Of a stretch of 48,060 bases of DNA, positions 5,673 through 32,688 are shown piece by piece. Position 1 is the stretch's first letter. Every line of letters starts with the position of its first letter. The DNA comes from an uncultured Gammaproteobacteria bacterium (GTDB lineage: Bacteria; Pseudomonadota; Gammaproteobacteria; PS1; Pseudothioglobaceae), in contig CALCCK010000007.1 in assembly GCA_937899995.1 (NCBI GenBank), forward strand, positions 1 to 48,060, in the 5' to 3' direction. The notes under the pieces are model-generated. The model was not told where the DNA came from. It ran no database searches and saw only the letters and a program-made list of their open reading frames with translations. The position numbers and the translations under genes were made by a program.

Positions 5673-5675
5673 TAT

Positions 5676-11701: not shown

Positions 11702-11703
11702 TT

Positions 11704-12159
11704 ATGAAAGAATTTATTAATAAAATTTCAGCATCTGACAAGATAGATGACACAGTTACATTAGCTTTTGAACAAAGAGTAAAGAGTCGACTTAGAGTGA
11801 AATTAGACAGTAATGAAGATGCGGGTATATTTATGCAAAGAGGCAGCATACTTGAACATGGCGATCTTATTGCAACCAAGGGTGATTTTATTGTCCAAGT
11901 AGTGGCCGCCTCAGAATTATTATCATCAATTTACACAACTGATACATTGTTACTAGCTCAAGTTTGTTACCATCTTGGGAATCGACATATTGAACTTCAA
12001 ATTAAGCCAAATAGTGTGCATTATAAGCATGACCATGTTCTGGATGGGATGGTGCAAAGTTTTGGGTTAAAAGTTATTTCTGAGATGCTACCTTTTGAGC
12101 CAGAACAAGGTGCTTATAATTCTCATTCTTTGGATTATGGACATTCTCACGAACATTGA
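11704..12159 (+). CDS. ureE: Urease accessory metallochaperone UreE
   Basis: Position after ureC, GNRH motif (YHLGNRHIE), short His-rich tail (HSLDYGHSHEH). Confidence 0.85.
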   Translation: MKEFINKISASDKIDDTVTLAFEQRVKSRLRVKLDSNEDAGIFMQRGSILEHGDLIATKGDFIVQVVAASELLSSIYTTDTLLLAQVCYHLGNRHIELQIKPNSVHYKHDHVLDGMVQSFGLKVISEMLPFEPEQGAYNSHSLDYGHSHEH

Positions 12160-12826
12160 ACAACTTAGCTTGTTAAGGTTAATGAGTCTAACAAGCCCAA
12201 CTTTACCTATAGGAGGCTTTACTTATTCTCAGGGCATCGAAAAAGCTGTAGAAGATGGATGGATTGTTAGTATGGATACAGCACACGATTGGCTTAGTGG
12301 GCAATTATTAAATGGCCTAACTTATACGGATCTTCCTATATTAATAAAACTATATGATGCTTTTGTTTGTAATAATAGAATAGATATTATTAAGTGGAAT
12401 CAGATTCTATTAGCATGTCGTGAAACGAGTGAATTAAGACAAGAAGAAGTTAATAGAGGGAGGGCGTTAACGAAAGTATTACAAGGTTTAGACGAATCAA
12501 TAGTTGAAGATTATCAAGAAGTAATTAATACCAATCACTTGTCTGGATTTGCATTGATCAGTGTCCACTGGAATATACCCATTAGAGAGTTATTGTTAGG
12601 TTATAGTTGGTCTTGGCTTGAAAATCAAGTATCAGCTGTTGTCAAGATTATTCCACTCGGGCAAACGCAAGGGCAACAGTTATTACATAAGTTAATTGAG
12701 TTAATTCCTGAAATTATTGATCAATCAATCCAGGTGGATGAACAAGATATTGGCAGATCACAACCAGCCTTGGCAATAATTAGTAGTTTGCATGAGACTC
12801 AATATACAAGAATTTTTAGATCATAG
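12137..12826 (+). CDS. ureF: Urease accessory protein UreF
   Basis: LLRLMSLTSPTLPIGGFTYSQGIE is the UreF N-terminal signature. The ORF-track start at 12095 is a TTG deep inside ureE, so I prefer the ATG at 12137. The start remains uncertain. Confidence 0.8.
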   Translation: MDILTNIEQLSLLRLMSLTSPTLPIGGFTYSQGIEKAVEDGWIVSMDTAHDWLSGQLLNGLTYTDLPILIKLYDAFVCNNRIDIIKWNQILLACRETSELRQEEVNRGRALTKVLQGLDESIVEDYQEVINTNHLSGFALISVHWNIPIRELLLGYSWSWLENQVSAVVKIIPLGQTQGQQLLHKLIELIPEIIDQSIQVDEQDIGRSQPALAIISSLHETQYTRIFRS

Positions 12827-12838
12827 GATATATAGAAA

Positions 12839-13450
12839 ATGGGTAATAATCAGCAGCCATTAAGGGTAGGTGTTGGCGGGCCAGTTGGCTCAGGAAAAAC
12901 TGCTTTGTTAGATGTATTATGTAAAGCTATGCGTGATAGTTATCAGATTGCAGTTGTTACGAATGATATCTACACTAAAGAAGATGCAATGTTTTTAACC
13001 GCAAGTAATGCTTTAGATAAAGATAGGATTATAGGTGTAGAAACAGGCGGCTGTCCTCATACTGCAATTAGGGAGGATGCTTCAATGAATCTCGCAGCAA
13101 TAGAGGATTTATGTCAAAAATTCCCCAATCTAGATATTATTTTTATTGAAAGTGGTGGAGATAATTTATCTGCAACATTTAGTCCAGAATTGGCAGATAT
13201 TACTATTTATGTGATTGATGTAGCAGAAGGTGAAAAAATACCAAGAAAAGGAGGCCCGGGAATCACTCGTTCAGATTTATTAGTGATTAATAAAATTGAT
13301 TTAGCGCCGTATGTTGGCGCTTCGTTAGATGTTATGGAAAGTGATACTAAAAAAATGAGGGGAAAGAAACCTTTCGTCTTTACAAATTTAAAGAAATCTA
13401 TCGGGGTTGAAACAGTAATTAATTTTATTATTAATGAAGGTATGTTGTAA
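12839..13450 (+). CDS. ureG: Urease accessory GTPase UreG
   Basis: P-loop [13 protein letters not shown] motif ([13 protein letters not shown]), and ESGGDNL. Confidence 0.95.
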
Positions 13451-17016: not shown

Positions 17017-20000
17017 TTATTCTAAATTTGGCGAAAGCAGTCTTTCTGCTTGATCAACCGAAATTCCTTTTCTGCTTGCATAATCTTCCACTTGTTCTTG
17101 GTTGATTTTTGCCACACCAAAATAGCGCGATTCAGGATGTGAAAAATACCAGCCACTGACGGATGCTGTTGGCAACATTGCATACGAGCTGGTGAGTGTC
17201 ATGCCGATATTTTTCTCAACATCGAGTAATTCCCATAACTTGTCTTTTTCACTGTGTTCAGGGCACGCAGGGTAGCCAGGGGCTGGGCGAATGCCGCGAT
17301 ATTTTTCTTCAATAAATTCATTGTTGTTGAAGTTTTCATCACTATAGCCCCAAATTTCAGTGCGGAACTTATAATGCATCATTTCCGCAAAAGCCTCGGC
17401 TAAACGATCAGCCACAGCTTTGATCATAATTGAGTTGTAGTCGTCATGATCAGCTTCGAAAGCCTCTACTAGTGGTTCAATGTTAATACCAGCAGTTACT
17501 GCAAATGCACCCATATAATCAGTCACACCATTGTCTTTAGGTGCGATGAAATCACTCAAACAAAAGTTTGGTGTGTTGCCTTTTTTATCCAGCTGTTGGC
17601 GAAGCTGGTTGAGTGTCATTAGTACATCACCGCTCTCATCATAAAGTTCAATATCTTCATTCACGCTATTGGCTGGGAAGATGCCCACAACTGCGTTAGC
17701 GCTTAATAATTTCTCGTCGATGACTTTCTTAAATAGGGCTTGAGCATCTTTATAAAGATCTGAAGCTGATTCACCTACCACTTCATCCGTCAAGATGTCT
17801 GGAAATTTTCCGGCCAACTCCCAAGTACGGAAGAATGGTACCCAGTCGATAAATTCAAAAATCTCAGCTAAGTCGTAGTCTTTATATACTTGTATGCCGA
17901 GTTGATTAGGCGTTGTAATCGCATCAAATTTGAGTTTTGGTTTGTTGGCTCTAGCCTTGTCCATTGAAATAAGCTTACTCTTGCCTTTGTTGGCACGACG
18001 CTGTCTAACCACTTCGTACTCTTCTTTAGTTTCGGCCAGTAGTTTTGGCTTGGCCTCTAATGAAAGTAAGTTAGAGGCGACACCCACTGCTTTGGAGGCG
18101 TCTTGTACGTAAAACACACCTTTGTCATACTCTGGCTCAATCTTAACGGCTGTATGCGCTTTAGAGGTTGTGGCACCACCAATCATTAATGGCAAGCTAA
18201 AGCCTTGGCGTGTCATTTCCTTGGCCACAAATACCATCTCATCAAGTGACGGAGTGATCAGGCCAGACAAGCCAATAATATCCACATTTTCTTTTTTAGC
18301 AGTTTCTAAAATAGTCTCAGTTGGTACCATGACACCAAGATCAATAATCTCATAATTATTACAAGATAACACCACGCCAACAATATTTTTACCAATATCA
18401 TGTACGTCACCTTTAACCGTGGCCATTAGAATTTTTCCTTGCGAGGTGGATGCGCAATCATCTTTTTCAGTTTCTAAGAATGGATCTAAGTAAGCCACTG
18501 ATTTTTTCATTACACGGGCAGATTTAACTACTTGTGGTAAGAACATTTTGCCAGCACCAAATAAATCACCCACCACATTCATACCATCCATCAACGGACC
18601 TTCAATCACCAATATAGGGCGTCCAAGCTTATCAAATGCCTCTTGAGTGTCTTCGTCAATAAATTTAGTAATACCTTTAATCAGGGCATGTTGTAAGCGT
18701 TTTTCTACTTCCCACGAGCGCCATTCTAAATCCTTCAGATTTTCTTTTTGTTCGCCAGTACCAGAGAATTTTCCAGCGATATCAACCAGGCGCTCACCTG
18801 CATTTTCATCGCTATTGAGCACCACATCTTCTACTGCTTTTTTAAGTTCAGGATCAATATCATCATAAACCACCAGCTGACTAGCGTTAACAATACCCAT
18901 AGTCATGCCCGCTTTTACAGCGTGGTATAAAAATACTGAGTGGATCGCTTCACGTACCGGGTTGTTACCCCTAAATGAGAACGATACATTAGATACACCA
19001 CCTGATATTTTCGCATAAGGTAGGTTTTTGGTTATCTCGCGCGTGGCTTCAATAAAGTCTACGCCGTAGTTATTGTGCTCTTCAATACCAGTGGCAATGG
19101 CAAAGATATTAGGATCAAAGATAATGTCTTCTGCTGGGAAGCCAACTTCATTAACCAAGATGTTATAAGCCTCTGTGCAAATCTCAATCTTGCGCTCTTG
19201 CGTGTCAGCCTGGCCAACTTCATCAAACGCCATAACGATAATCGCCGCACCATAACGCTTACAAAGTTTGGCATATTTAACAAAATTCTCTTTGCCTTCT
19301 TTGAGTGAGATTGAGTTAACAATTGCTTTGCCTTGTGTGCATTTAAGGCCGGCTTCAATAATATCCCATTTAGATGAGTCCACCATCAGTGGCACTTTAG
19401 AGATATCGGGCTCAGAGGCGATTAGATTCATAAAACGGACCATTGCCGCTTTACCATCGAGCATACCTTCATCCATATTGATATCAATCACTTGCGCACC
19501 TTCTTCTACTTGTGCACGGCAAATATCCAGCGCTTCTTCAAATTCTTCGTTGAGAATCAAACGCTTAAATTTAGCGGAGCCGGTGACATTAGCACGCTCA
19601 CCTATATTTACAAATAAAGCTTCATCGCCAATATTAAATGCTTCTAGGCCAGATAATCGACACTTTGGTTTAATATTAGGAATTTTTCTAGGTGCTAAAC
19701 CCTCAATCGCATCAGCAATCGCCTTAATATGCTCAGGCGTAGAACCACAACAACCACCCAAAATATTCACCAAGCCTGAACTTGCCCATTCACCTACTTG
19801 CTCACTCATGGTGATGGCACCTAGATCATATTCACCAAATTCATTTGGCAAACCAGCATTTGGGTGTGCAGACACATAGGTGTTGGCTATGCGAGACATC
19901 TCAGCCACATATTGGCGTAATAAATCAGGGCCTAATGCACAGTTAAGGCCAATAGAGATAGGGTTAGCATGACGCAATGAATTATAAAATGCTTCCGTCA

Positions 20001-20670
20001 TTTGCCCAGATAGGGTACGACCAGAGGCGTCTGTGATGGTACCTGAGATCATGATTGGAAGTTCAACACCGTCATCTTCGAAGACTTGTTGAACGGCAAA
20101 AATAGCCGCCTTGGCATTTAGCGTATCAAAAATAGTTTCAATTAAGATGATGTCTGAACCACCCTCGATCAAACCACGAGTTGATTCCATATACACGTCA
20201 ACCAACTCATCAAAGGTGACATTTCTAAAACCAGGGTCATTCACATCTGGTGAGAGTGAACAAGTACGCGAAGTCGGGCCAATAACACCCGCTACAAACC
20301 GTGGCTTATTTTCGGTAGAAAATTCGTCACAAGCAGTCTTCGCAAGGCGAGCACTTTCTACATTGATTTCATAAGCAAATTCTTCCATCTTGTAATCAGA
20401 CATAGAAGTTTTAGTTGCGTTAAAGGTATTTGTTTCAACAATGTCAGCGCCTACCTCTAGATATGAGCGGTGAATATCCTGAATTATTTTTGGCTGAGTG
20501 AGCGATAAAAGGTCATTATTACCTTGTACCAAAATATGCCAATCTTTAAAGCGTTCACCACGATACTGCTCTTCGCTGAGCTTATGCTTTTGAATCATGG
20601 TGCCCATAGCACCATCTAGTACTAAGATTCGTTGCTCTAAAAGGGATTGTAATATCTGTTTTGTCGACAT
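17017..20670 (-). CDS. metH: Cobalamin-dependent methionine synthase MetH
   Basis: All modules are present: Hcy-binding ([18 protein letters not shown]), pterin-binding, B12-binding ([10 protein letters not shown]) and the AdoMet activation domain. I set the start at [14 protein letters not shown] (ATG at 20670) rather than the ORF-track extension to 20745. Confidence 0.95.
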
Positions 20671-20757
20671 GCTGGGTATTATACCCAAAGCTAACAAGCA
20701 CCCACAGGGCATAAATTCGGCTTTATAATGAACGCAGTATTTCAATACAAAGTAACT

Positions 20758-21180
20758 ATGAAAAGATTGTTAATGACTACTTTATTTATCAGTAGCTTGC
20801 AGGCCCATGCATTTTTAGATTTTAATAATTATGGTGCAGACTATAAAGATAATAACTGGCCAGTTTGGACGCCCATGTATTGGATGGAGAAAGTAACTGA
20901 TAACGATATGTTTGGTAATAAACGCAATCAAGGTTATGGCTATCCTTATAACAACCGACCTTACAACATCAACGCTTCACATTTTGACATGAGCCAAATG
21001 CCAACTCCGGATCAAGCTTACCAGGCAGAGAGTAATCGTATACCAACCCCAATGTTTATGACACCTGCAGCGCAATCATTTGTCAATCCAGGTAATATGG
21101 GTGGTTATGATTTACCAAGCCCTTACCCTAGTAATTATCAGTTTAACGAGCACTCTAATCCTTATCCAAATGGATTCTAA
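20758..21180 (+). CDS. Small Sec-exported low-complexity protein (Asn/Pro/Tyr/Met-rich), paralogue 1, uncharacterised
   Basis: Signal peptide [18 protein letters not shown]|F. The mature part contains [33 protein letters not shown] and [15 protein letters not shown]. The start is taken at the second ATG because it gives a canonical signal peptide; the ORF-track start is 20728. Confidence 0.6.
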
Positions 21181-21206
21181 TTGATTCTCATTTTGAAACT
21201 ATAGTA

Positions 21207-21234
21207 TTGACTTATAATATTATTATGTTATAAT
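21207..21234 (+). promoter_or_regulatory. Near-consensus sigma70 promoter with extended -10 for the gene at 21274
   Basis: TTGACT (21207-21212), 16-nt spacer, TGT-TATAAT (-10 at 21229-21234). About 40 nt upstream of the ATG. Confidence 0.5.
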
Positions 21235-21273
21235 ATATGCTCCTTTAACAATTAAAAATATGGAGATAAGACA

Positions 21274-21603
21274 ATGAAAAAGATTTTCGCAGTAATATTA
21301 TTAGCATTTTCACTAGGTGCTAACGCATTTTTTAACAACAATGACATGCCTTGGAACAACGGCTTTAACAACAACGTTAACGGCTACCAGCAAGACAATG
21401 GAATTTTTTCATACAATCCGTACGATTACTGGGATCCACGTTGGTACATGGAAGAAATGAGCAATATGGTTGACGAGTTTGACGATGAGTTTAATAACAA
21501 TAACAACAATCGTTATGGTTATAACTCATACAACAATGGCCCTTGGAACAGAACTGCAGCAGTTACATCTGCACCAGTTAAGACTGAGGCAGCAGCAAAA
21601 TAA
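21274..21603 (+). CDS. Small Sec-exported Asn/Gly/Trp/Tyr-rich low-complexity protein, paralogue 2, uncharacterised
   Basis: GGAG SD. Signal peptide MKKIFAVILLAFSLGANA|F. Mature part contains MPWNNGFNNN, the acidic motif DPRWYMEEMSNMVDEFDDEF, and NRYGYNSYNNGPWN. Has its own terminator. Confidence 0.7.
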   Translation: MKKIFAVILLAFSLGANAFFNNNDMPWNNGFNNNVNGYQQDNGIFSYNPYDYWDPRWYMEEMSNMVDEFDDEFNNNNNNRYGYNSYNNGPWNRTAAVTSAPVKTEAAAK

Positions 21604-21621
21604 TTTAAATTAATTTGCTAG

Positions 21622-21654
21622 AAAAAAAACCAGCACTAGTTGCTGGTTTTTTTT
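21622..21654 (+). terminator. Rho-independent terminator
   Basis: A-run, then stem CCAGCA / TGCTGG (21630-21635 / 21641-21646) with a 5-nt loop, then T8. Confidence 0.75.
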
Positions 21655-21719
21655 CGTCTATATAAAAAAATATTGGTTTATAATGAACTTACTTTTTATA
21701 AAAATCAGAGGAGAGTTAG

Positions 21720-22241
21720 ATGAAAAAAATTATCACAATTTCACTATTAACCCTAACATTAAACGCAACGGCAGGTTGGGGTGCTAATAACAGCCCTTGG
21801 GGTAACAATGGCTGTAGTAACGGTCCATGGGGTGGCTTAAATAATAATAACGGTTTTATTGGCAACAACCGATATTCAATGTTCACACCAGATTGGTTTA
21901 GTGAAGAAATGGATGATATGATGGATGAATTTGATTCTAACAACAATGGTCCTTGGGGTAATAGAGGCTTTAACAATGGTCCTTGGGGTAATAGAGGCTT
22001 TAACAATGGTCCTTGGGGTAATAGAGGCTTTAACAATGGTCCTTGGGGTAATAGAGGCTTTAACAATGGTCCATGGGGTAATAATGGCCCTTGGAATAAC
22101 TCTAATTTTGGCAATATGCCCTGGGGTAATCAAAATAATCCTTGGAGTAACAACTCTTGGAGGAATAGTCCGTGGGGTAACTACGGCTATAACAGAGCTA
22201 TTCCTACATCAGCAAATACTGGTGCAACAAATTCCAAGTAA
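21720..22241 (+). CDS. Small Sec-exported Asn/Gly/Trp/Pro-rich repeat protein, paralogue 3, uncharacterised
   Basis: GAGGAG SD. Signal peptide MKKIITISLLTLTLNATA|G. Motif TPDWFSEEMDDMMDEFD, then (NNGPWGNRGF)x4 and further PWGN/PWSN repeats. Has its own terminator. Confidence 0.7.
   Translation: MKKIITISLLTLTLNATAGWGANNSPWGNNGCSNGPWGGLNNNNGFIGNNRYSMFTPDWFSEEMDDMMDEFDSNNNGPWGNRGFNNGPWGNRGFNNGPWGNRGFNNGPWGNRGFNNGPWGNNGPWNNSNFGNMPWGNQNNPWSNNSWRNSPWGNYGYNRAIPTSANTGATNSK
21942..22083 (+). repeat. Perfect 30-nt tandem repeat x4 (21942-22061) plus a diverged partial fifth copy, in frame within the CDS
   Basis: AACAATGGTCCTTGGGGTAATAGAGGCTTT is repeated head to tail with no mismatch and encodes NNGPWGNRGF. 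Confidence 0.95.
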
Positions 22242-22258
22242 GTAAATCACTTAATCTT

Positions 22259-22288
22259 AAAAAAGCCAGCTTTATGCTGGCTTTTTTG
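22259..22288 (+). terminator. Rho-independent terminator, 20 nt upstream of the ABC permease start
   Basis: Stem AGCCAGC / GCTGGCT (22264-22270 / 22276-22282), loop TTTAT, then a T-run. Confidence 0.75.
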
Positions 22289-22307: not shown

Positions 22308-23285
22308 ATGTGGACTTACATACTTAGACGTGCCCTATACAGTATCCCTATTTTATTAGGCGTTAACCTAATTACATTTCTGTTGTTTTTTATGGTGAAT
22401 ACGCCGGATGATATGGCGCGTATTCAGCTAGGTGCTAAGCACGTCACACAGGCTGATATTCATACTTGGAAAGAAGAAAAAGGCTACAACAAGCCTTTGT
22501 TCATTAATACTAATCAATCGGGTTCAGCAATACTTACAGACACCATTTTTTATCAAAAATCTATTCCTTTGTTTCAGCTTGATTTTGGTCATTCAGACTC
22601 GGGTAGAAACATCAACAAAGACATTGCTCAGCGTATGTGGCCGTCATTAGCCTTGGCCATTCCATCTTTTATTATTGCGCTGATTACCAACATCGTGTTT
22701 GCCATGTGGATGGTGATGTTGCTCGGCACCAAGCTAGAGCGAATGAGTTTAATTTTTACCGTGGCGCTAATGTCTATATCAGGGCTTTTTTATATCATCA
22801 TCGGCCAAAAAATAGTGGCTGGTATGTGGCATTGGTTCCCTGTTTCAGGTTACCAAAGTGGCTTTGAGTCTTGGCGTTTTGTCATGTTGCCGGTACTGAT
22901 TGGTGTGGTCGCCGGACTCGGTTCAGGAGTCAGATGGTATCGCTCGATCTTCCTAGAAGAAATCAACAAGCCGTATGTCAATACAGCCCGTGCCAAAGGT
23001 CTTAGCGAGCAACAAGTGTTATTCAAGCATGTGTTGAAAAATGCTATGATTCCGATTTTGACCGGTGTAGTTGTCATCATTCCATCGTTATTTATGGGCA
23101 GCTTAATCATGGAAAGTTTCTTCTCTATTCCAGGCTTAGGTAGCTACACCATTGATGCGATTAATTCACAAGATTTTGCCATTGTGCGTGCCATGGTATT
23201 TTTAGGCTCAATTCTCTATATTGTTGGCCTATTGTTGACGGACATCTCCTACACTTGGGTTGATCCGAGAGTGAAGTTCAAATGA
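22308..23285 (+). CDS. Opp/Dpp-type (peptide/nickel family) ABC importer permease, DppB/YejB-like
   Basis: MWTYILRRALYSIPILLGVNLITFLLFF start, and the EAA-loop region YVNTARAKGLSEQQVLFKHVLKNAMIP. Confidence 0.85.
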   Translation: MWTYILRRALYSIPILLGVNLITFLLFFMVNTPDDMARIQLGAKHVTQADIHTWKEEKGYNKPLFINTNQSGSAILTDTIFYQKSIPLFQLDFGHSDSGRNINKDIAQRMWPSLALAIPSFIIALITNIVFAMWMVMLLGTKLERMSLIFTVALMSISGLFYIIIGQKIVAGMWHWFPVSGYQSGFESWRFVMLPVLIGVVAGLGSGVRWYRSIFLEEINKPYVNTARAKGLSEQQVLFKHVLKNAMIPILTGVVVIIPSLFMGSLIMESFFSIPGLGSYTIDAINSQDFAIVRAMVFLGSILYIVGLLLTDISYTWVDPRVKFK

Positions 23286-24592
23286 CTTTTGTCTGGCTGT
23301 GGACCGACTTCTTGCTTTGGGTGTTATTCGCTCTGAGTATGGTTGCCGTGGTGAAAATACGCGGTAATGAATTATTATTACAAAAATGGCAAAAAATCTT
23401 TGCCCAACCTTTAGCGCTATCTGCTTTTATTATATTTACATTTTATATTTTAATCGGCTTGTCAGACTCCATTCACTTTAGGCTGGATAACAACACCACA
23501 ACTTATAGTGTATTGGATAGGGTGCTATTACCTGCATTAGAGGCTGAAGAAAAAACCTACTCTACGCCACTGAATTTTGAGCAATTTTCAAAAGAATATT
23601 TAGACAACGGCCTTCGCGGACGCGTGCACTTAAACCTAGTATCAGATGAAATCACCAATGCTGGTGACAACAATAAAAATCTATTAGCCATTAGTGTCAA
23701 TGCGTTGCTTTATGCAGCCGTTATTTTTATTGCCTTTATTTTAGTTTTATTAAAATTTACCTCAGTCAAAATCAGGCGCAACCGTTCAGTTCTAGTCACT
23801 ATTTTTACTTTGATGTTTTTCTGTGTGTGGGTGGTATTACTCATGCCAAATTATCACATCTTAGGGACAGATAAAGCTGGTATTGATGTCTTTTACAAAG
23901 CTGTTAAGAGCATTCGTACTGGTATGGTGTTTGGCTTATTGACAACACTTTTAGCCTTACCACCGGCAATTATTTTGGGATTAATGGCAGGCTATTTCAA
24001 AGGCAAAACTGACGATGTGATTCAATACATCTATACCACCATTAACGCCATTCCAGGCATCCTACTTATCGCCGCCTTGGTGCTAATATTGCAAGTATAT
24101 ATGGATGAACATGCCTCTGATTATGCCTCTGCTCTAGAGCGCTCAGATCTTAAATTACTGTTACTTTGTATGATACTAGCACTCACTTCATGGACAGGTC
24201 TGTGTCGTTTAATTCGTGCAGAAACACTTAAACTATCAGAGCTAGAATTTGTCCAAGCTGCTAAAGTATTCGGCATCAGTAATATTAAAATTTTGTTTAA
24301 TCATCTTATGCCGAATATCATGCACTTAGTGCTTATCTCCATTGTGCTTGATTTCTCAGGTTTGGTACTGATTGAAGCGGTGTTGTCATATGTGGGTGTA
24401 GGTGTAGATGCCACCACTATGAGCTGGGGCAATATGATTAACGCTGCACGTCTAGAGTTATCTACTGATCCTGTAGTCTGGTGGCCTCTAGCTTCTAGTT
24501 TTATCTTTATGTTTATTTTGGTGCTAAGCGCCAATCTATTTGCTGATCGTGTACGTCAGGTGTTTGATCCAAAAGGAGATGAAGATGCTTAA
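23282..24592 (+). CDS. Opp/Dpp-type ABC importer permease (DppC/YejE-like) with a ~190-aa N-terminal extension
   Basis: The C-terminal core has HILGTDKAGIDVF and the EAA-loop FVQAAKVFGISNIKILFNHLMPN. The extension adds TM segments and a ~80-aa predicted periplasmic loop. ATGA overlap with the upstream permease. Confidence 0.85.
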   Translation: MTFVWLWTDFLLWVLFALSMVAVVKIRGNELLLQKWQKIFAQPLALSAFIIFTFYILIGLSDSIHFRLDNNTTTYSVLDRVLLPALEAEEKTYSTPLNFEQFSKEYLDNGLRGRVHLNLVSDEITNAGDNNKNLLAISVNALLYAAVIFIAFILVLLKFTSVKIRRNRSVLVTIFTLMFFCVWVVLLMPNYHILGTDKAGIDVFYKAVKSIRTGMVFGLLTTLLALPPAIILGLMAGYFKGKTDDVIQYIYTTINAIPGILLIAALVLILQVYMDEHASDYASALERSDLKLLLLCMILALTSWTGLCRLIRAETLKLSELEFVQAAKVFGISNIKILFNHLMPNIMHLVLISIVLDFSGLVLIEAVLSYVGVGVDATTMSWGNMINAARLELSTDPVVWWPLASSFIFMFILVLSANLFADRVRQVFDPKGDEDA

Positions 24593-26135
24593 GCCATTAC
24601 TATCAGTTGAAAATTTATCGATTTTCACTAAATCACAAAAAATCGTAAAAAATATCAGCTTTACTATTAACCAAGGTGAAATCTTTGCCTTGGTAGGTGA
24701 ATCAGGCTCTGGAAAGAGCTTAACAGCTTTAAGTATAGTTGATTTACTAGCAAAAAATCTTAAAAAGAGCGGTAAAATCACCTATAAAGACGCCGATTTA
24801 AGTCATTCGCAAAATATCCAAAATTTTCGTGGCTCAGAAATTGCCTTTATTTTTCAAGATCCAACCAACAGCTTGAACCCTATTATGACCATTGGCGAGC
24901 AAGTAGACGAAGTATTAGCTTTGCATACCAATTTAAACAAAAAACAGCGTAAATCTCGTGTTTTAACTCTTTTTGAGCAGGTTGATTTGGATACCAGTGT
25001 TCAAATGTACGCGCGTTATCCTCATCAAGTCTCTGGCGGGCAAAAGCAACGAGTAATGATAGCCTGTGCACTTGCCGGCGGTGCTAACTTACTCATTGCT
25101 GATGAGCCAACCACAGCACTTGATGTCACCACGCAAAAACAAGTATTAGAGTTATTACTAGATTTAAGAAAAAATCAAAAATTATCGATATTACTCATTA
25201 CCCACGATTTATCCGTAGTGAAACTGATGGCAGACAGAGTGGCGGTGATGCACCAAGGTAATATTATTGAAAACCGCGATAAAACCGAATGTTTCCAAAA
25301 CCCAATCGAAGCTTATTCTAAAAAGCTTTTAGTCTCTTTGCCAAAAGGCAGTCGAGACCAAACCTTTGGTGATGTGCTGATCAAGGGTGATAAGGTTAAG
25401 GTTTATTTCCCAATTAAAACTGGCTTATTCCAGCGTACCACTGATTATGTCAGAGCCGTTGATGAGGTCAACTTCACCCTCAAACAAGGGCAAAACCTTG
25501 CCATTGTTGGTGAGTCAGGTTCCGGTAAAACCACACTAGCCAAAGCCATAATGCGCCAGTTAGATTTGCACGAGGGCAGTGTAAGTATGTGTAATAAAGC
25601 CATTAGTACTTATGCACGCAAGGCGTATGCTGCCAAGGTACAAATTGTATTTCAAAATGTCACCTCGAGCTTTAACCCACGTATGCGTATCTCTCAAACC
25701 TTGCTAGAGTGCTTGCAAGCGTTAAATCCAAGCCAAGCAAATACCGCTTATTTAAAAGAATTATTGCAAGAAGTAGAGCTCGATCCTGAACTCATGCATC
25801 GTTACCCGCATGAGCTTTCAGGTGGGCAATTGCAGCGCTTATCGATTGCACGTGCCATTAGTGTTAACCCGCAAGTAATTATCTGTGATGAGCCTACTTC
25901 AGCTCTCGATGCCACTATTAAAGTGCAAATACTTAATTTATTATTACGCTTGCAGCGTGAAAAAGGCGTTAGTTACATCATCATCACTCACGATATCTCA
26001 ATTGTAGATTATTTTGCTGATCATGTGATTGTGATGAAGCAGGGTAAAGTTTTAGAGGATGGGGCTACAAATGAGATACTTAATAATCCTAAAAATAACT
26101 ACACCAAAGCTCTTTTATCTTCAGTTTTAAGTTGA
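24585..26135 (+). CDS. Fused double-ATPase subunit of an Opp/Dpp-type ABC importer (YejF-like)
   Basis: Two Walker A motifs (GESGSGKS twice) and two signatures (VSGGQKQRV, LSGGQLQRL). I set the start at the ATG at 24585 (GGAG 6 nt upstream; ATGCTTAA overlap with the previous stop). The ORF-track start is 24540. Confidence 0.85.
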   Translation: MLKPLLSVENLSIFTKSQKIVKNISFTINQGEIFALVGESGSGKSLTALSIVDLLAKNLKKSGKITYKDADLSHSQNIQNFRGSEIAFIFQDPTNSLNPIMTIGEQVDEVLALHTNLNKKQRKSRVLTLFEQVDLDTSVQMYARYPHQVSGGQKQRVMIACALAGGANLLIADEPTTALDVTTQKQVLELLLDLRKNQKLSILLITHDLSVVKLMADRVAVMHQGNIIENRDKTECFQNPIEAYSKKLLVSLPKGSRDQTFGDVLIKGDKVKVYFPIKTGLFQRTTDYVRAVDEVNFTLKQGQNLAIVGESGSGKTTLAKAIMRQLDLHEGSVSMCNKAISTYARKAYAAKVQIVFQNVTSSFNPRMRISQTLLECLQALNPSQANTAYLKELLQEVELDPELMHRYPHELSGGQLQRLSIARAISVNPQVIICDEPTSALDATIKVQILNLLLRLQREKGVSYIIITHDISIVDYFADHVIVMKQGKVLEDGATNEILNNPKNNYTKALLSSVLS

Positions 26136-26209: not shown

Positions 26210-26653
26210 ATGAAAAAAGTTATCACTGCCATGTCAATGGCTATCGTATTAGCAAGTAGTAACGTTATGGCTCAAGAGGAATTTAATTTAGGCGCAATTA
26301 GTGATTTCTTTTCAGAAATGGGTAACTCAATCAAAGATGGCGTTTCTAGTGCCTCTGACTCAATTAAAGAAAGTACAACAGAAGTTCAAAATATTGATTT
26401 CTCATTTGACGATATTAAAACAGCAATTTTTGGCGAGTCTGAAGTTGTAGAAAAGATTGTCTATAAAGATAAGCCGGTAGAAGTAGTAAAAGAGAAAATT
26501 ATTTATAAAGAGAAAATTATTTATAAAGACAAAATTGTTGAGAAGATTATCAAGGTTCAGCCTAAAGAAAGAACTTGTGTAACAAAAGTTCACCAGTTGG
26601 CAGTGCCAGCAGGTGAATCAACAACAGTAACAACTTGTACTGAATGGAAATAA
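26210..26653 (+). CDS. Small Sec-exported protein with EKI(I/V)YK(D/E)K repeats and a C-terminal Cys pair, uncharacterised
   Basis: AGAGGAAG SD. Signal peptide MKKVITAMSMAIVLASSNVMA|Q. Repeats EKIVYKDKPVEVVKEKIIYKEKIIYKDKIVEKIIK. C terminus C-x28-C. Has its own promoter and terminator. Confidence 0.6.
   Translation: MKKVITAMSMAIVLASSNVMAQEEFNLGAISDFFSEMGNSIKDGVSSASDSIKESTTEVQNIDFSFDDIKTAIFGESEVVEKIVYKDKPVEVVKEKIIYKEKIIYKDKIVEKIIKVQPKERTCVTKVHQLAVPAGESTTVTTCTEWK
26492..26527 (+). repeat. Perfect 18-nt tandem duplication within the CDS (encodes EKIIYK x2)
   Basis: GAGAAAATTATTTATAAA occurs at 26492-26509 and again at 26510-26527. Confidence 0.9.
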
Positions 26654-26768: not shown

Positions 26769-27176
26769 ATGAGTGACAACTGTATTTTTTGTAAATTAAG
26801 AGATGAACGTGTTATTTATGAATGCGAATATACAAAAGCATTTATTGATACTTATCCTGCCTCACCTGGGCATACGCTGATTATTCCCAAGCGCCATTTT
26901 GCCACGTATTTTGAAGCTACTGAAGATGAAATATTAGCTATTGGTAAAGCACTCAAAGCTGCTAAAAAAATTCTTGATGAAGAATTCTCACCCGATGCTT
27001 ACAACATTGGCGTTAACAATGGCGAGGCTGCTGGACAAAGTGTAATGCACTTACATGTGCACTTAATGCCACGATACAAAGGCGATGTCAATGATCCAAA
27101 AGGCGGCGTACGCTGGATTTTAAAAGATAAGGCTAATTATTGGAACAAAAAAGAAACCACCAAAAGAGTAACCTAG
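26769..27176 (+). CDS. HIT (histidine triad) family nucleotide hydrolase/transferase
   Basis: CIFC zinc-like motif at the N terminus and the histidine triad HLHVHLMPR. Confidence 0.85.
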   Translation: MSDNCIFCKLRDERVIYECEYTKAFIDTYPASPGHTLIIPKRHFATYFEATEDEILAIGKALKAAKKILDEEFSPDAYNIGVNNGEAAGQSVMHLHVHLMPRYKGDVNDPKGGVRWILKDKANYWNKKETTKRVT

Positions 27177-27581: not shown

Positions 27582-29186
27582 ATGGGTGTGAGCATGGTGA
27601 ATATTGAACAACTATTATTAAAACCAAGTGTCTATCCTCATCATGTTGATGAGGTTGAGCATATTGAGACGCACATTTCTCACATCTTTCTAGCCGGTGA
27701 GTATGCCTATAAAGTTAAAAAATCACTTAATCTTGGGTTTTTAGACTTCTCTACACTTGAAGCTCGTAAACACTTTTGCGCTGAAGAGGTGCGCCTCAAC
27801 TCAAGACTAGCAAGAGATATTTATATTGATGTTGTATCAATTATCTGTAATGATGATCGAATTTTCATTACTGATAAGCAAACTGACAAATACACGAATG
27901 TTGTTGAGTATGCTGTGCGGATGCACCGTTTTGACCGTGAAATGGAGTTGGATAAATTACTTGAAAATCATTCTAAGTATTGGAAAGATGAGTGGTTAGA
28001 TGAGCTCTGCATAATTGTGGCTAAGTTCCACTTAGACTCTACTCGAGCTAAGATTGACTCAGGTTATGGCGAAGTCGATGTTATTTTTTCATTCGCACAT
28101 GAGAATTTCGTCCAGATTAAGCAACATTTGCACAATTATCAACATATTGTCAAAACTTCTGAACAACTCCAAGAATGGACCACCTTACAAAAGAAAAGAC
28201 TTTCTAGTGAGATTGATTCAAGATTGAAGAATGGGTTTGTTCGGGAATGTCATGGAGATATGCATTTAGCAAATATGGTGTACTGGCAATCAAAGGTGCA
28301 AATTTTTGATGGTATTGAGTTTAGCGCCGAGCTTCGATGGATCGATGTCATTAGTGAGGTGGCGTTTTTAGTCATGGATTTGGAAAGTCGAGAAAGGCCT
28401 GATTTAGCTTGGCAGTTTTTAAATGGTTATCTTTCTTTAACTGGCGATTATGCAGGCTTGAGTTTATTGGATTTTTACCGTAATTATCTCGCCAGTGTTC
28501 GTGCCAAGGTCTTGTCAATTCGATGTTCACAACTAAACGCGAGAGATGCTAAAGAACAAAAAATCCTACTTGATGGAGTGGACCATTATTTAGCATTAGC
28601 AAGCGCCTACACTCAACCTAAAAAACCTAGTGTAATTATGCTACATGGCTTATCTGGCAGTGGAAAAAGCACACTTGCTGCCCGCCTTAATGAACGACTA
28701 TTGGCTATTTGGATTCGCTCCGATGTTGAAAGAAAGCGTTTATTCGGCATATTTGATGGCGGTCAAGGTTTATTACTGAAAGGGGATATGTATGCTCCAG
28801 AGGCAACCAGAGTCACTTATCAACGATTGCTTGATTTAACTAAATCCATTATTGAGGATGGCTATAGTGTTATTGTTGATGCAACTTTTCTTCAAGTAAA
28901 AGAGCGTCAAATGTTCTATCAGGATTTTTATAAAATTGATACTGCTATTATCATTCTTGATTTACAAGTAGAAAAGAACGAACTTCGTGAGCGTGTTAGA
29001 CAACGTTCAAATGATCAAAATAATATCTCAGATGCTGATGTGAGTGTATTAGAGCAACAATTTCACTTATTGGATCCACTTAAAGACACCGAAAAGGTGA
29101 CAATATTACATATAAATGCAAATAAAATCCTAGATTCAAAAGCAATTGCAAATAAAGTACGTAAATTGATAAATACAATTAATTAA
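27582..29186 (+). CDS. Two-domain protein: N-terminal aminoglycoside-phosphotransferase-like kinase fold plus a C-terminal P-loop (AAA_33/zeta-like) kinase domain; conserved but uncharacterised
   Basis: N terminus IETHISHIFLAGEYAYKVKKSLNLGFLDFSTLEARK...ECHGDMHLANM (APH-type HGD catalytic loop). C-terminal Walker A GLSGSGKSTLA. An alternative start lies at 27594. Confidence 0.75.
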   Translation: MGVSMVNIEQLLLKPSVYPHHVDEVEHIETHISHIFLAGEYAYKVKKSLNLGFLDFSTLEARKHFCAEEVRLNSRLARDIYIDVVSIICNDDRIFITDKQTDKYTNVVEYAVRMHRFDREMELDKLLENHSKYWKDEWLDELCIIVAKFHLDSTRAKIDSGYGEVDVIFSFAHENFVQIKQHLHNYQHIVKTSEQLQEWTTLQKKRLSSEIDSRLKNGFVRECHGDMHLANMVYWQSKVQIFDGIEFSAELRWIDVISEVAFLVMDLESRERPDLAWQFLNGYLSLTGDYAGLSLLDFYRNYLASVRAKVLSIRCSQLNARDAKEQKILLDGVDHYLALASAYTQPKKPSVIMLHGLSGSGKSTLAARLNERLLAIWIRSDVERKRLFGIFDGGQGLLLKGDMYAPEATRVTYQRLLDLTKSIIEDGYSVIVDATFLQVKERQMFYQDFYKIDTAIIILDLQVEKNELRERVRQRSNDQNNISDADVSVLEQQFHLLDPLKDTEKVTILHINANKILDSKAIANKVRKLINTIN

Positions 29187-29236
29187 CATTGGAGGAGTAC
29201 AATCATAAGTAGATAACTGAAAGAAAGGAGTGTGTG

Positions 29237-29421
29237 ATGCAATGCAATGTAGGCAGGGAGGACAAAATTGTTAGATTCGTTGCTGGTGTTGTTATTATTG
29301 GTGCAGGATTTATTACGGCTCGTATTTAGGAGTAATTGGCGTTGTATTAGTGCTTACAGGGTTGTTTGGTTTATGTCCTGTTTATTCAATTTTAGGTATA
29401 TCAACTTGTAAAAAAGATTAG
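29237..29421 (+). pseudogene. DUF2892 (YgaP C-terminal-like) small membrane protein gene interrupted by a 1-nt frameshift
   Basis: AAGGAG SD lies 6 nt before the ATG. Frame 1 gives MQCNVGREDKIVRFVAGVVIIGAGFITARI*. A second frame continues GSYLGVIGVVLVLTGLFGLCPVYSILGISTCKKD*. Joined, they match the family pattern N-V-G-x-x-D-[RK]...TG...CP-x-Y-x-x-x-G-x-x-TC. The span is 185 nt, which is not a multiple of 3. Confidence 0.65.
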
Positions 29422-29474
29422 TTCTTCAATCTTTATTATTAAAGGTCTTTTTAAATGGTTGAAAGGGCTTGGGT

Positions 29475-30572
29475 ATGGTTTTATTGACTAAAAATTTTTT
29501 TATTTTTCTATTAATTTTTTTTCTATCTTCTGTTGTTTATTCTAACGCTTTTCAGCTTAAACAGATTGTTTCAGGTTTAGGTATACCTTGGAGTATGGTT
29601 TTTATCTCAAATGATGAAATCTTATTTACCGAGCGCAAGGGCAGAGCGGGTGTACTCAACATTCAATCAGGAAAATTTAACTACTTAACTGGCACTCCAG
29701 AAGTAATGGCAAGTGGTCAAGGTGGTTTGTTAGATGTAGCAAAAGCGCCTGAGTATAAAGAAGGAGATTGGATATATTTTACTTATTCTAAAGCTATTCA
29801 AGATCAAGGCGCCACCACACTTGCCAGAGCACACATAGATGACCATGCATTAAAAGATTGGCAAGATTTAATCATCACAGATTCAAAAACCGATACTAGT
29901 GTGCATTATGGTAGTCGGATAGCGTTTGATGATAAAGGCTATCTTTATTTTTCTATTGGCGATCGTGGTGTCAGGTCCAACGCGCAAGATTTAAATTCAC
30001 ATGCGGGTTCTATTTTAAGGCTGAATCTTGATGGATCTACACCAAAAGATAATCCTTTTGTTGGGCACTCAAATGTCTTGCCACAGATATGGAGTTATGG
30101 TCATCGAAATCCACAAGGACTGGCTTGGGACAATGAAAACAAACGCCTTTGGTCAATCGAGCACGGCCCCAGAGGTGGTGATGAAATTAATCTAATTGAA
30201 GAAGGTAAAAACTATGGTTGGCCTACTATATCTTATGGCAAGGAGTACTGGGGTCCAGTGTCGGTAGGTGAGGGAACACACAAAAAAGGCATGGAACAGC
30301 CGGTAAAAGTTTATGTACCCTCAATAGCACCAGGTAGTTTGCTGTATTACACTGGTGATGCTTTTAAAGACTGGCAGGGTAGTTTATTTTCAGGTGCGCT
30401 TAAACTACGCCATATTAATAGAATTACACTCGACGCACAGGGTAGAGTGGCTGCAGAAGAACGTTTATTTGAAAACCTAGGTGAGCGTATTCGGGCACTC
30501 CTTCAGAGCTCGGAGGGCTGGATATATTTTTCAACAGACAGTGGAAAAATCTATGTTATCAAACCTAAATAA
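29475..30572 (+). CDS. PQQ-dependent soluble sugar (aldose/sorbosone) dehydrogenase, YliI-like, exported
   Basis: Signal peptide, then beta-propeller motifs (GLGIPWSMVF, GQGGLLDVA, HYGSRIAFD, GHRNPQGLAWD, EHGPRGGDEIN). I set the start at the ATG at 29475; the ORF track uses a TTG at 29469. Confidence 0.8.
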   Translation: MVLLTKNFFIFLLIFFLSSVVYSNAFQLKQIVSGLGIPWSMVFISNDEILFTERKGRAGVLNIQSGKFNYLTGTPEVMASGQGGLLDVAKAPEYKEGDWIYFTYSKAIQDQGATTLARAHIDDHALKDWQDLIITDSKTDTSVHYGSRIAFDDKGYLYFSIGDRGVRSNAQDLNSHAGSILRLNLDGSTPKDNPFVGHSNVLPQIWSYGHRNPQGLAWDNENKRLWSIEHGPRGGDEINLIEEGKNYGWPTISYGKEYWGPVSVGEGTHKKGMEQPVKVYVPSIAPGSLLYYTGDAFKDWQGSLFSGALKLRHINRITLDAQGRVAAEERLFENLGERIRALLQSSEGWIYFSTDSGKIYVIKPK

Positions 30573-31197
30573 TACAAAAAAATCGCTATTGAAAAAAATG
30601 CGAAGCAATAGGATTGTTGAGGATGATAAAGTGATAGACGCTTTTCGAGCAATATCCAGAGAGTTATTTGTACCTTTAAACTCTAAAAAAGAGGCATACA
30701 TTGATACTCCACTCAGTATTGGATATAAGCAAACTATTTCTCAGCCTTCTACGGTGTTTTCAATGGTTGAAGCGTTAGAACTTAAAAAAACAGATAAAGT
30801 TTTAGAGGTTGGCTCTGGTAGTGGTTACGAAGCAGCGATTATAAGTCAATTATGCGATCAAGTTTATTCTGTTGAGATTGTGCCAGAGCTGGTTAATTTT
30901 GCTAAGGAAAATCTAGCTAAAGCCAAAATAAATAACGTAGAAATCATACAATATGACGGTGGATTAGGCTATGAGCAGCAAGCACCCTATGATAAGATTA
31001 TTGTATCAGCTGCATGTGTGGAAATCCCACAAGCATTGGTAGAACAGCTAAAAGATGGTGGTATTTTAGTCGCCCCTGTTGGTGATGGCTGTATGCAAGA
31101 AATGATTAAAGGCGTTAAACACAATCAAGTACTAGATGAAACTGATTTGGGAGATTATATCTTTGTGCCATTAACGGGAGAATTTGGAAGAGTATAG
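30553..31197 (+). CDS. pcm: Protein-L-isoaspartate O-methyltransferase
   Basis: QTISQPSTV, the SAM motif VLEVGSGSGYEAA, and PYDKIIVSAA. I set the start at the ATG at 30553 (20-nt overlap with the upstream gene) rather than the ORF-track start at 30481. Confidence 0.85.
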   Translation: MLSNLNNTKKSLLKKMRSNRIVEDDKVIDAFRAISRELFVPLNSKKEAYIDTPLSIGYKQTISQPSTVFSMVEALELKKTDKVLEVGSGSGYEAAIISQLCDQVYSVEIVPELVNFAKENLAKAKINNVEIIQYDGGLGYEQQAPYDKIIVSAACVEIPQALVEQLKDGGILVAPVGDGCMQEMIKGVKHNQVLDETDLGDYIFVPLTGEFGRV

Positions 31198-31233
31198 TAG
31201 TTAGTACCGTTGTTGGATTTTTTATGAGGGATT

Positions 31234-32091
31234 ATGAAAATTTTAATTTTAGGTGGTACAGGATTAATTGGTCGTGCGTTAGAGCGGCATTTATCTGCCG
31301 ATCATCAGGTTGAATGTGTTGACCGTTCAGCTTTTGTTAACCAAGACGCCTTGAACAAACTGGTTCAAGGTAGGGATTTAATTATTAAACTTTCTGGCGC
31401 TAATATTATTAAGCGCTGGAATACAGCTTATAAGCAAGAGATCTGGGATAGTCGGGTTAAAACCAGTCAGCAATTAAAGACTTCTTTAGATTTGTTAACA
31501 ATTAAACCACGTATTTTTTGTGCATCAGCAGTTGGATTTTATCCTGAGTCATTATGTAGCCAACCTTTTAATGAAGATTATCAACACTCAGGCACTGGTT
31601 TTTTGTCTGATCTTGTTGTAGCTTGGGAGCAGCAATCAAAAACTCTTGCTGAGAATGTGTTAATTTTTAGATTTGGGGTGGTGTTATCAGTGAAGGGTGG
31701 TGCGCTTGGTCAGATGCTGTTGCCATTCAAATTGGGGTTTGGCGGTCCAGTAGCCGGTGGAAAGCAATGTTTTTCGTGGATTCATGTAGATGATTTACTC
31801 AAGGCATTTTCTTATGCTATTGAACATCTAGATATGCAAGGTGTGTTTAACCTAACTTCTCCAAACCCTATTACACAGGCTAAATTTGGTCAAACCTTAG
31901 CAAGTTTATTACACCGACCTTTTTTAATACCCTTATTCAAATGGCAAGTTAAATTGTTATTTGGTGAAGGCTCCCAGGTGTTAACGCAGGGTGTATCAGT
32001 AGTTCCTAAAAAATTGCTTCAATTAGGTTTTAAATTTGATTATGTAGAGGTAAGATCGGCATTAAAAGATGTTATTAATAATAAAAAGTAA
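31234..32091 (+). CDS. Atypical SDR / epimerase-family protein, YfcH-like (TIGR01777 type)
   Basis: MKILILGGTGLIGRAL Rossmann motif, and a C-terminal region typical of the YfcH/DUF1731 tail (GEGSQVLTQGVSVVPKKLLQLGFKF). Confidence 0.75.
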   Translation: MKILILGGTGLIGRALERHLSADHQVECVDRSAFVNQDALNKLVQGRDLIIKLSGANIIKRWNTAYKQEIWDSRVKTSQQLKTSLDLLTIKPRIFCASAVGFYPESLCSQPFNEDYQHSGTGFLSDLVVAWEQQSKTLAENVLIFRFGVVLSVKGGALGQMLLPFKLGFGGPVAGGKQCFSWIHVDDLLKAFSYAIEHLDMQGVFNLTSPNPITQAKFGQTLASLLHRPFLIPLFKWQVKLLFGEGSQVLTQGVSVVPKKLLQLGFKFDYVEVRSALKDVINNKK

Positions 32092-32101
32092 TGTCGAATC
32101 T

Positions 32102-32635
32102 TTAATTGGTTTTTTGTAAAGTGGATAAATCTTTAAGTATCTCTTGAATATGAGTTTGTGGATCTACACCCCTGTAGATCTTAACAATATCACCTGTTGG
32201 ATTAATGATAAAGCTGTTCCTTTTAGCAAACTTAATAATCCAATAATCTCCTAAAGAATCATATTGTTTGGCTACTTTTCCACCTGGATCAGAAAGAATA
32301 GAAAAAGGCAGTTTATTTTTCTTAGAAAATTTTTGATGGGATTCTACATCATCTAAGCTAATGCCAAACACAATTGCACGCTTGGCAATGATGTGATTAA
32401 TAGCATCACGAAAATTACAGGCTTCGGTTGTGCAGCCCGGTGTGTCGTCTTTGGGGTAGAAATATAACACTACCCACTGACCTTGGTAATCACCCAGCGT
32501 GTGTTGTGCATTGTGTTGATCAATCAGCGTAAAATTCGGCGCTCGTTGGCCTAGCTCAAGGGCTGCTTGTGATTGATTAAATAAAGTGAGCAGACTAAGC
32601 ATAACTAAAAATTTTTTAATAAAAGTAAGTAGCAT
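32102..32635 (-). CDS. bcp: Exported thiol peroxidase, Bcp/PrxQ-type peroxiredoxin
   Basis: N-terminal signal peptide, then APNFTL...VVLYFYPKDDTPGCTTEACNFRD (peroxidatic Cys-x4-Cys). Confidence 0.85.
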   Translation of the reverse strand: MLLTFIKKFLVMLSLLTLFNQSQAALELGQRAPNFTLIDQHNAQHTLGDYQGQWVVLYFYPKDDTPGCTTEACNFRDAINHIIAKRAIVFGISLDDVESHQKFSKKNKLPFSILSDPGGKVAKQYDSLGDYWIIKFAKRNSFIINPTGDIVKIYRGVDPQTHIQEILKDLSTLQKTN

Positions 32636-32643
32636 AACAATTT

Positions 32644-32688
32644 AATTATTAATAATTATATTAATACTTTAGCATAATTATTAATAAT
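32644..32688. promoter_or_regulatory. Two copies of the palindromic box (A)ATTATTAATAAT in the bcp / DUF411 divergent intergenic region; candidate operator
   Basis: The 12-bp perfect palindrome ATTATTAATAAT occurs at 32645-32656 and 32677-32688, centres 32 bp apart. The AT-rich background lowers its significance. Confidence 0.3.

Follow-up and report, generated by a model that had tools for sequence, protein, structure and literature searches.

The question raised by this locus is what three small exported proteins of low complexity, encoded one after the other, do in their host. They lie on the plus strand of a 48,060-nucleotide stretch of contig CALCCK010000007.1 (GenBank assembly GCA_937899995.1, uncultured Gammaproteobacteria bacterium); "the window" below means this whole stretch, and the three genes are called genes 1, 2 and 3 (g1, g2 and g3). 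A preliminary description of the window had proposed, as its leading idea, a role like that of the sulfur globule proteins (Sgp) of sulfur-oxidising bacteria, and our analysis makes this the best-supported explanation, since the clade of the host stores sulfur and relatives that share an acidic box with these proteins carry the Sgp name. We consider it probable that genes 1-3 encode putative sulfur globule proteins of SUP05/Thioglobaceae and belong to a family that can be defined by a motif. SUP05 bacteria rank among the principal oxidisers of sulfur and fixers of carbon in the dark, be it in oxygen minimum zones, in vent plumes or in symbiosis with animals, and they draw on stored sulfur when sulfide runs short. 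To our knowledge, no definition at the sequence level exists for the proteins that enclose their globules.

All three open reading frames (ORFs) were confirmed between metH and an ATP-binding cassette (ABC) permease gene, and both the coordinates and the readings quoted in the preliminary description agree with the sequence (Table 1). The genes are more than chance because they have database homologues (66 for g2 and 72 for g3 in a collection of 5.8 billion proteins), because the order metH (minus strand), g1, g2, g3 is syntenic across 55 Thioglobaceae loci found in a scan of one genome per species, and because the ratio of nonsynonymous to synonymous substitution rates (dN/dS), determined against five of the 55 loci, ranges from 0.06 to 0.18 (0.07-0.15 for gene 1, 0.06-0.14 for gene 2 and 0.12-0.18 for gene 3). 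Genes 1-3 are real and under purifying selection. The longest ORF of gene 1 begins at 20728, and we prefer the start at 20758 because all 33 extracted orthologues begin at the MK(K/R) codon that corresponds to this position. A 132-aa ORF on the minus strand (21716-22114) containing PLLKPLLPQG repeats was rejected as a gene, since it only mirrors the gene 3 repeat on the opposite strand.

By inspection, each of the three proteins opens with an MKK or MKR n-region, a hydrophobic core of 10-12 residues and an AXA site, and the cleavage sites read by eye lie between AHA and F in gene 1, between ANA and F in gene 2, and between ATA and G in gene 3. Neither a lipobox nor a twin arginine was found in the signal regions upon inspection. 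So read, all three proteins have the cleavable Sec signal that characterises the sulfur globule protein class. The mature parts, of 10.8-17.2 kDa and with an isoelectric point (pI) of 4.1-4.6 for g1 and g2, are rich in Asn, Gly, Trp, Pro and Tyr; they contain 15-27% Asn, 17-20% aromatic residues and 2-6% Ile, Leu and Val together, and their grand average of hydropathy (GRAVY) lies between -1.1 and -1.4. Sulfur globule proteins as a class have mature parts of about 8-14 kDa with a repetitive, aromatic/Gly-rich composition; the correspondence is incomplete, as the mature parts here extend to a larger size, are dominated by Asn rather than by Gly and Tyr, and are hydrophilic by GRAVY. Signal inspection and mature composition thus bear out the earlier view of Sec-exported, low-complexity proteins.

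Sequence comparison makes genes 2 and 3 clear paralogues: BLASTP with composition correction aligned them with an E-value of 2.5e-9, and profile-profile alignment in hhalign, from which the signal peptides had been removed, gave 99.3% (E 1.4e-20). Their common motif reads NG(I/F)x-x-NPY-xx-(W/F)-(D/T)P-x-W-(Y/F)-x-EEM-xx-M-x-DEFD and ends in the acidic box. Among 23 sequences of the gene 2 box, D54, P55, R56, W57, E60, E61, M62, M65, D67, E68, F69 and D70 are invariant or near-invariant, and in 23 sequences of the gene 3 box the invariant columns are W59, E62, E63, M64, E70, F71 and D72. Gene 1 is a probable, more distant relative of the two. In hhalign its profile aligned better with the wider acidic-box family (87%, E 4e-6) than with that of gene 2 (69%, E 4e-5), and found no match to the gene 3 family; its conserved string is WP(V/I)WTPM(Y/F)WME(K/E), with WMEEMFD in some orthologues, and its C-terminal half is conserved as well. 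The paralogy claimed earlier for the whole trio consequently stands for genes 2 and 3, and is weaker for gene 1, the acidic part of which is degenerate.

Named homologues of genes 2 and 3 come without exception from Candidatus (Ca.) Thioglobus, from the SUP05 cluster or from symbionts of Bathymodiolus, Catillopecten and vesicomyids, with Ruthia, Vesicomyosocius, Thiodubiliella and Ruthturnera among the symbiont genera. The MetH protein of the window is 92-94% identical to those of SUP05 MAG-6 and Ca. Ruthturnera metagenome-assembled genomes (MAGs), which also have the gene order in common with the window, and because of this identity and order we place the host in the sulfur-oxidising Thioglobaceae. 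In its full form the locus consists of metH (minus strand), g1, one to three tandem copies of g2, g3, a further gene termed g3b, a HIT-family gene and a gene for a fourth exported protein, p4. The gene sets are largest in free-living SUP05 and smallest in reduced symbionts: vesicomyid and Thiodubiliella symbionts have kept only g2, the core member, and one Ruthia genome retains a decayed remnant of g1. This distribution bears on the idea that the proteins are adhesive ones at the cell surface or outside the cell, such as S-layer-associated or host-interaction factors, which might be expected from the many symbionts among the carriers and from the frequency of low-complexity aromatic repeats in adhesive proteins. 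However, it is the free-living bacteria that have the largest sets and the reduced symbionts the smallest, no secretion-system signal beyond Sec is present, and the S-layer protein of the clade is a different protein (PMC6509183). We regard an adhesive role as very improbable.

Some variation of the locus deserves mention in its own right. Two or three tandem g2 copies were seen in several genomes. In many SUP05 genomes, g3b encodes an exported Asn/Pro/Trp/Met-rich protein between g3 and the HIT gene (for example L018 8114-8563, L005 10983-11462 and L024 10914-11513); it lacks the acidic box, is homologous to the tail of g3 (hhalign 98.3%) and is not present in the window. Two genomes titled 'uncultured PS1 clade bacterium' (L036 and L038) carry a SUP05-type metH-g1-g2-g3-g3b-HIT-p4 locus and a MetH that is 88% identical to that of the window, and their 'PS1 clade' label looks wrong for a Thioglobaceae genome.

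Gene order likewise decides the case of the ABC importer genes that follow gene 3 in the window. The preliminary description had considered that genes 1-3 might encode precursors of exported peptides, or substrates, for this importer, an idea whose sole support is adjacency in the window. Most syntenic loci lack the permease and ATPase genes and have another paralogue and then HIT after g3; these genes stand between g3 and HIT only in some of the related loci. Moreover, genes 1-3 start with Sec signals rather than leader peptides, genes for modification or processing are absent, and gene 3 has its own terminator ahead of the transporter. Since it is missing from most syntenic loci, the transporter is not a partner of these genes; gene order marks it as a lineage-specific insertion unrelated to them. 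The idea is thereby refuted, and we give it next to no credence. The transporter itself comprises two Dpp/Opp-type permeases and a fused double ABC ATPase, and has no binding-protein gene.

The relatives that connect the family with sulfur storage lie further afield. When 1.84 billion representative proteins were searched with a profile built from g2 and g3, only 74 reached the threshold of E<=0.001. The distant ones carry NPYDEWDPRYWMEEMED or WDPRYWMEEMED, or else WP(E/V)W(T/S)PM(Y/F)WMEEM, followed by a run of Asp and by tails rich in Gly, Tyr, Pro and Ala; a second search, for which an alignment of these distant matches was used, returned 232 proteins. The known organisms in this set are sulfur oxidisers, namely lucinid symbionts, the Gigantopelta symbiont, Sedimenticolaceae, Chromatiales and Ca. 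Thiopontia. Nearly all members of the family are labelled 'hypothetical protein'. An Sgp name is attached to a few relatives, which belong to lucinid symbionts and Ca. Thiopontia: in NCBI it is 'sulfur globule protein CV1' or 'sulfur globule protein', and in UniRef 'Sulfur globule protein CV1', a name that UniRef uses for three gene 2 homologues as well. When only the mature parts were aligned to this named group with hhalign, g2 reached 98% (E 1.5e-13), g3 96% (E 1.7e-9) and g1 87% (E 4e-6). The string WP(E/V)W(T/S)PM(Y/F)WMEEM, which is of the gene 1 type, was found in P0316, P0277, P0307, P0208 and P0209, all from other sulfur oxidisers, and both the g1-type and the g2/g3-type box are present outside SUP05. 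Among the matches listed, a g1-type gene of Ca. Thiopontia autotrophica (L063, L064, 6001-8872) lies 560 bp from convergent fccAB, the genes for flavocytochrome c sulfide dehydrogenase. We define the family by a signal peptide, an aromatic stretch ending in [DT]P-x-[WY][WYF]-x-EEM-x-[DN]-M/F-x-D-[ED], and a low-complexity tail; genes 2 and 3 show all of these features, and gene 1 is a variant with a degenerate acidic part that is tied to the family by its hhalign value of 87%. The profile searches and the synteny comparison that had been suggested earlier have thus led to relatives in sulfur oxidisers, to a gene order conserved in 55 loci and to no confident match with a characterised family.

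Several observations weigh against a globule role. The Pfam SGP model (PF17228, gathering threshold 26.7 bits), which we take to be built on SgpA/SgpB, did not match genes 1-3 at E<=10, and when 108 acidic-box relatives were compared with it, 102 were unmatched and six touched it, with a best E-value of 0.18. By these scores the acidic-box family is not the curated Pfam SGP family. The scan of genes 1-3 and p4 found no match at all in Pfam at E<=10 and none in NCBIfam at E<=1, in line with the earlier remark that no characterised family was recognised; for genes 1-3 the silence of NCBIfam is uninformative, because the Sgp-named relatives gave nothing meaningful there either. The link to the proven Allochromatium Sgp proteins Alvin_1905, Alvin_0358, Alvin_1325 and Alvin_2515 runs through database names only, which we treat as leads, and the 'CV1' names of the relatives may rest solely on low-complexity similarity. 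A tblastn search of plasmids with a named relative, seeking an annotated Chromatiaceae sgp gene, gave no match, and the motif strings were not found in the literature searched. The Allochromatium proteins have been described as extremely hydrophobic (PMC10386293), whereas those of genes 1-3 are Asn-rich and have the negative GRAVY values given above. The cluster does not lie beside sulfur genes: as the preliminary description had noted for sox and dsr, no sox, dsr, sqr or fcc genes were found in the window, and gene 2 paralogues at second loci sit after gyrA or ccoNOP, with no sulfur genes found nearby. Finally, the putative sgp genes of the cultured isolate Ca. Thioglobus autotrophicus EF1 are probably orthologous to the cluster, an identity derived only from the order of locus tags in the EF1 dataset of PMC6509183.

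The same observations would suit general periplasmic or envelope proteins of disordered structure and without a specific tie to sulfur, acting as a matrix, as a stress or osmotic buffer, or as support of cell shape, FtsZ being absent from the clade. Neither the window nor SUP05 loci show linkage to sox, dsr or fcc, gene 2 is kept in the most reduced clam symbionts, as expected of a housekeeping envelope protein, and the predicted disorder and the unmatched PF17228 fit such proteins as well. In contrast, the wider family, where the organism is named, occurs only in sulfur oxidisers, one relative adjoins fccAB, the periplasmic globules of the clade need a boundary, and putative sgp genes have already been flagged in the clade (PMC6509183). 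We judge a general envelope function to be unlikely and favour globule proteins on account of sulfur oxidation in the clade and of the periplasmic globules seen in one of its cultured members.

What such proteins would look like is indicated by the gene 2 product, the AlphaFold2 model of which (built on 23 sequences) has a pLDDT of 50 and a pTM of 0.15 and, outside the signal peptide, contains only one short helix at residues 56-62 (RWYMEEM). The protein is predicted to be largely disordered. The tails are Asn-rich in the window (26-30% Asn) and contain 24% Gly, 20% Tyr and 20% Pro in GC-richer relatives, a composition that fits drift in a genome of 37% GC. Length varies too. The repeat in gene 3 has four full units in the window and two in L057, where the protein is 153 aa long, and L056 has a gap of Ns within the array; apart from this region (around 3669-3850) the two assemblies are 99.7-100% identical to the window, which for its part matches a marine metagenome scaffold of 164 kb at 100% identity. 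The repeat-number difference reflects either population polymorphism or assembly uncertainty, and copy number differs among gene 3 orthologues as well.

In the model that we infer for location at the globule and for the roles of box and tail, Sec would export each protein, with cleavage after the AXA site, and the proteins would remain in the periplasm as mostly disordered chains of 10-17 kDa. Oxidation of thiosulfate or sulfide would give rise to periplasmic sulfur globules, on the surface of which the proteins would assemble as a coat. The N-proximal aromatic stretch together with the acidic box W-x-EEM-xx-M-x-DEFD, a predicted short helix, would most likely be the element of assembly or interaction, and the variable Trp/Tyr/Phe/Pro-rich tails would be the surface-active part in contact with sulfur, their length shifting fast through gain and loss of repeats. 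A broader proposal, which we put forward tentatively and with somewhat less than even confidence, is that the W-x-EEM proteins form a distinct superfamily, separate from Pfam SGP and without a curated model, that would make up the actual globule coat of SUP05 and of many marine thiotrophic symbionts; the box, as an assembly or sulfur-nucleating element, would come in two subtypes (WDPRYW and WPxWTPMYW), both kept by SUP05 as neighbours in a rapidly evolving array of three to six genes by metH. If this were true, a box profile could serve as a sequence marker of sulfur-storing capacity in metagenomes. The motif and the locus also point to candidate genes whose products could be sought by proteomics in globules of the cultured isolate, and the family offers an example of a low-complexity structural protein that keeps a short box while its tail tracks genome base composition.

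Genes 2 and 3 have expression signals of their own, as claimed in the preliminary description: GGAG, a Shine-Dalgarno-type sequence, stands 6-9 nt upstream of the ATG in both, and each is followed by an intrinsic terminator. The gene 2 terminator folds with -19.8 kcal/mol (z -5.9; 0 of 200 shuffles fold equally well) and that of gene 3 with -18.4 kcal/mol (z -5.1; again no shuffle folds equally well), and no hairpin was found in a scan downstream of gene 1. Upstream of gene 2, TTGACT and TATAAT are separated by 16 nt, with a TG before the -10 hexamer and 11 of 12 consensus matches; promoter-like sites in the region are not more numerous than expected from shuffling, and the site is a consensus match only.

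Table 1. Positions of the genes and sequence features discussed (numbering of the window; aa, amino acids)
Feature	Position	Strand	Remarks
Urea ABC transporter and urease genes	757-13450		transporter complete
metH	17017-20745	-	divergent from gene 1
Gene 1 (g1)	20758-21180	+	140 aa; mature ~14 kDa, pI 4.6
Gene 1 acidic-box region	20857-20913	+	residues 34-52; near-invariant in orthologues
Promoter-like site, gene 2	21207-21234	+	consensus match
Gene 2 (g2)	21274-21603	+	109 aa; mature 10.8 kDa, pI 4.1; signal peptide MKKIFAVILLAFSLGANA, cut before F
Gene 2 acidic box	21433-21483	+	DPRWYMEEMSNMVDEFD; residues 54-70
Intrinsic terminator 3' of gene 2	21621-21655	+	A-tract, CCAGCA stem, U-tract
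Gene 3 (g3)	21720-22241	+	173 aa; mature 17.2 kDa; signal peptide MKKIITISLLTLTLNATA, cut before G
Gene 3 acidic box	21885-21935	+	TPDWFSEEMDDMMDEFD; residues 56-72; long (N)GPWGN-type repeat tail after box
Tandem DNA repeat in gene 3	21942-22083	+	30 bp x 4.7 copies, 99% identical; units encode NNGPWGNRGF
Intrinsic terminator 3' of gene 3	22258-22288	+	A-tract, GCCAGC stem, U-tract
ABC permease and ATPase genes	22308-26135		
Exported repeat protein	26210-26653		147 aa
HIT-family gene	26769-27176		part of SUP05 cluster order g3b-HIT-p4
Gene block between HIT and p4	27582-33751		unrelated; does not separate HIT from p4 in other genomes
p4	33952-34395	+	147 aa, Met/Gln/Gly-rich, exported; conserved near-invariant Met-rich C-terminus SSFMMPGMDQGIRSMMEPGKIMAEEATPGMYMKPTWR

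The preliminary description had counted p4 as a fourth protein of related composition. Homology of p4 to genes 1-3 was rejected, since hhalign gave at most 1% to every other family and a BLAST E-value of 3e-4 falls in a low-complexity stretch; what stands is that p4 is syntenic with the cluster. It directly follows HIT in nine SUP05 genomes (L005, L008, L016, L017, L018, L022, L024, L030 and L036; for example L005 12091-12591, L017 6122-6613 and L018 9399-9899), and in the window unrelated genes spanning about 6.8 kb stand between the two. p4, too, may be associated with globules. The Met-rich p4 also enters into the proposal that these are periplasmic proteins for binding metal or mineral, in which the DEFD/EEM box and Met would hold Ca, Fe or Cu: the box is acidic, the pI of the first two proteins is low, and in the window p4 sits after a DUF411 protein and a cytochrome c. 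Yet genes 1-3 have neither His or Cys ligands nor Met-rich motifs, p4 follows HIT rather than copper-type genes elsewhere, and it is not homologous to genes 1-3; metal binding therefore strikes us as a slim chance.

The remainder of the window holds urea transport and urease genes, riboflavin genes, nusB and assorted housekeeping genes, besides metH, the cluster, the ABC transporter and HIT. The urea transporter consists of a Peripla_BP_5 binding protein, two permeases and two ATPases, and is followed by ureD, a fused gamma-beta subunit gene, the alpha subunit gene, ureE, ureF and ureG. Between the Dpp/Opp-type transporter and HIT, an exported protein with KIIYKEK/KIVEKII repeats and two C-terminal Cys is encoded; it has no family match, and apart from a 74% homologue in L004 its matches are weak. 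The Gigantopelta aegis symbiont likewise has a HIT gene immediately upstream of one for an acidic-box protein (L061 9422-9832). HIT adjacency as a general feature was rejected, as it was seen in SUP05 and this one Gigantopelta symbiont and not in three other contexts. The block that parts HIT from p4 contains an AAA_33 kinase fusion, a glucose/sorbosone dehydrogenase, PCMT, an epimerase, a Bcp/AhpC peroxiredoxin, a DUF411 protein and a cytochrome c with His-rich ends, and the DUF411 and cytochrome c pair looks copper-related.

How do genes 1-3 compare with known systems? Among the acidic-box proteins outside SUP05 (for example P0239; P0250 of the Bathyaustriella symbiont; P0258; P0316 of Ca. 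Thiopontia autotrophica; P0218 of the Gigantopelta symbiont), the likeness extends to the signal peptide, a length of 100-145 aa, a box of the N-x-YDEWDPRYWMEEMED type, an acidic run and a low-complexity aromatic tail, with hhalign values of 87-98%. Their tails, in contrast, are rich in Gly, Tyr, Pro and Ala rather than Asn, many of them have a conserved Cys pair (ECYGPYGKIPGCN) that genes 1-3 lack, and they are encoded by single genes, whereas SUP05 has an array of three to six.

The closest system in a cultured bacterium is that of EF1, which belongs to the same clade as the window and in which cryo-tomography revealed periplasmic sulfur globules (Shah et al. 2019, PMC6509183). In that study, four putative sgp genes were reported for the genome, and three Sgp proteins were detected in whole-cell proteomes. 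Its dataset places five locus tags between MetH (SP60_00100) and HIT (SP60_00070), among them SP60_00095, an uncharacterised protein of 145 aa that was detected and fits gene 1; because of these five tags and this fit, EF1 very likely carries the same metH-to-HIT cluster. The label 'sgp' was not found in the EF1 dataset, and the text on EF1 reports neither a motif, nor a family definition, nor a localisation. The globule idea has thus already been raised for the clade, in which the family had been flagged and not defined. What is new here is a usable definition by motif and locus, an incremental gain.

In general, Sgp proteins are small and structural, are exported by Sec and form part of the envelope of periplasmic globules; almost all globule-forming Proteobacteria have them, as one to six partly redundant paralogues per genome (Kümpel et al. 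2023, PMC10386293). In broad terms genes 1-3 agree with this description, as their products are small, carry a Sec signal, occur as paralogues, are of low complexity and are predicted to be disordered. The same holds for SgpA and SgpB (CV1 and CV2) of Allochromatium vinosum, which genes 1-3 resemble by description as small, Sec-exported, periplasmic and partly redundant paralogues of repetitive structural composition (PMC10386293). SgpC and SgpD of A. vinosum are further globule-envelope proteins with a Sec signal, so the coat can hold unrelated proteins (PMC10386293), and they, including SgpD as a predicted coiled-coil protein, offer a possible parallel for the non-homologous p4 beside the acidic-box proteins of SUP05.

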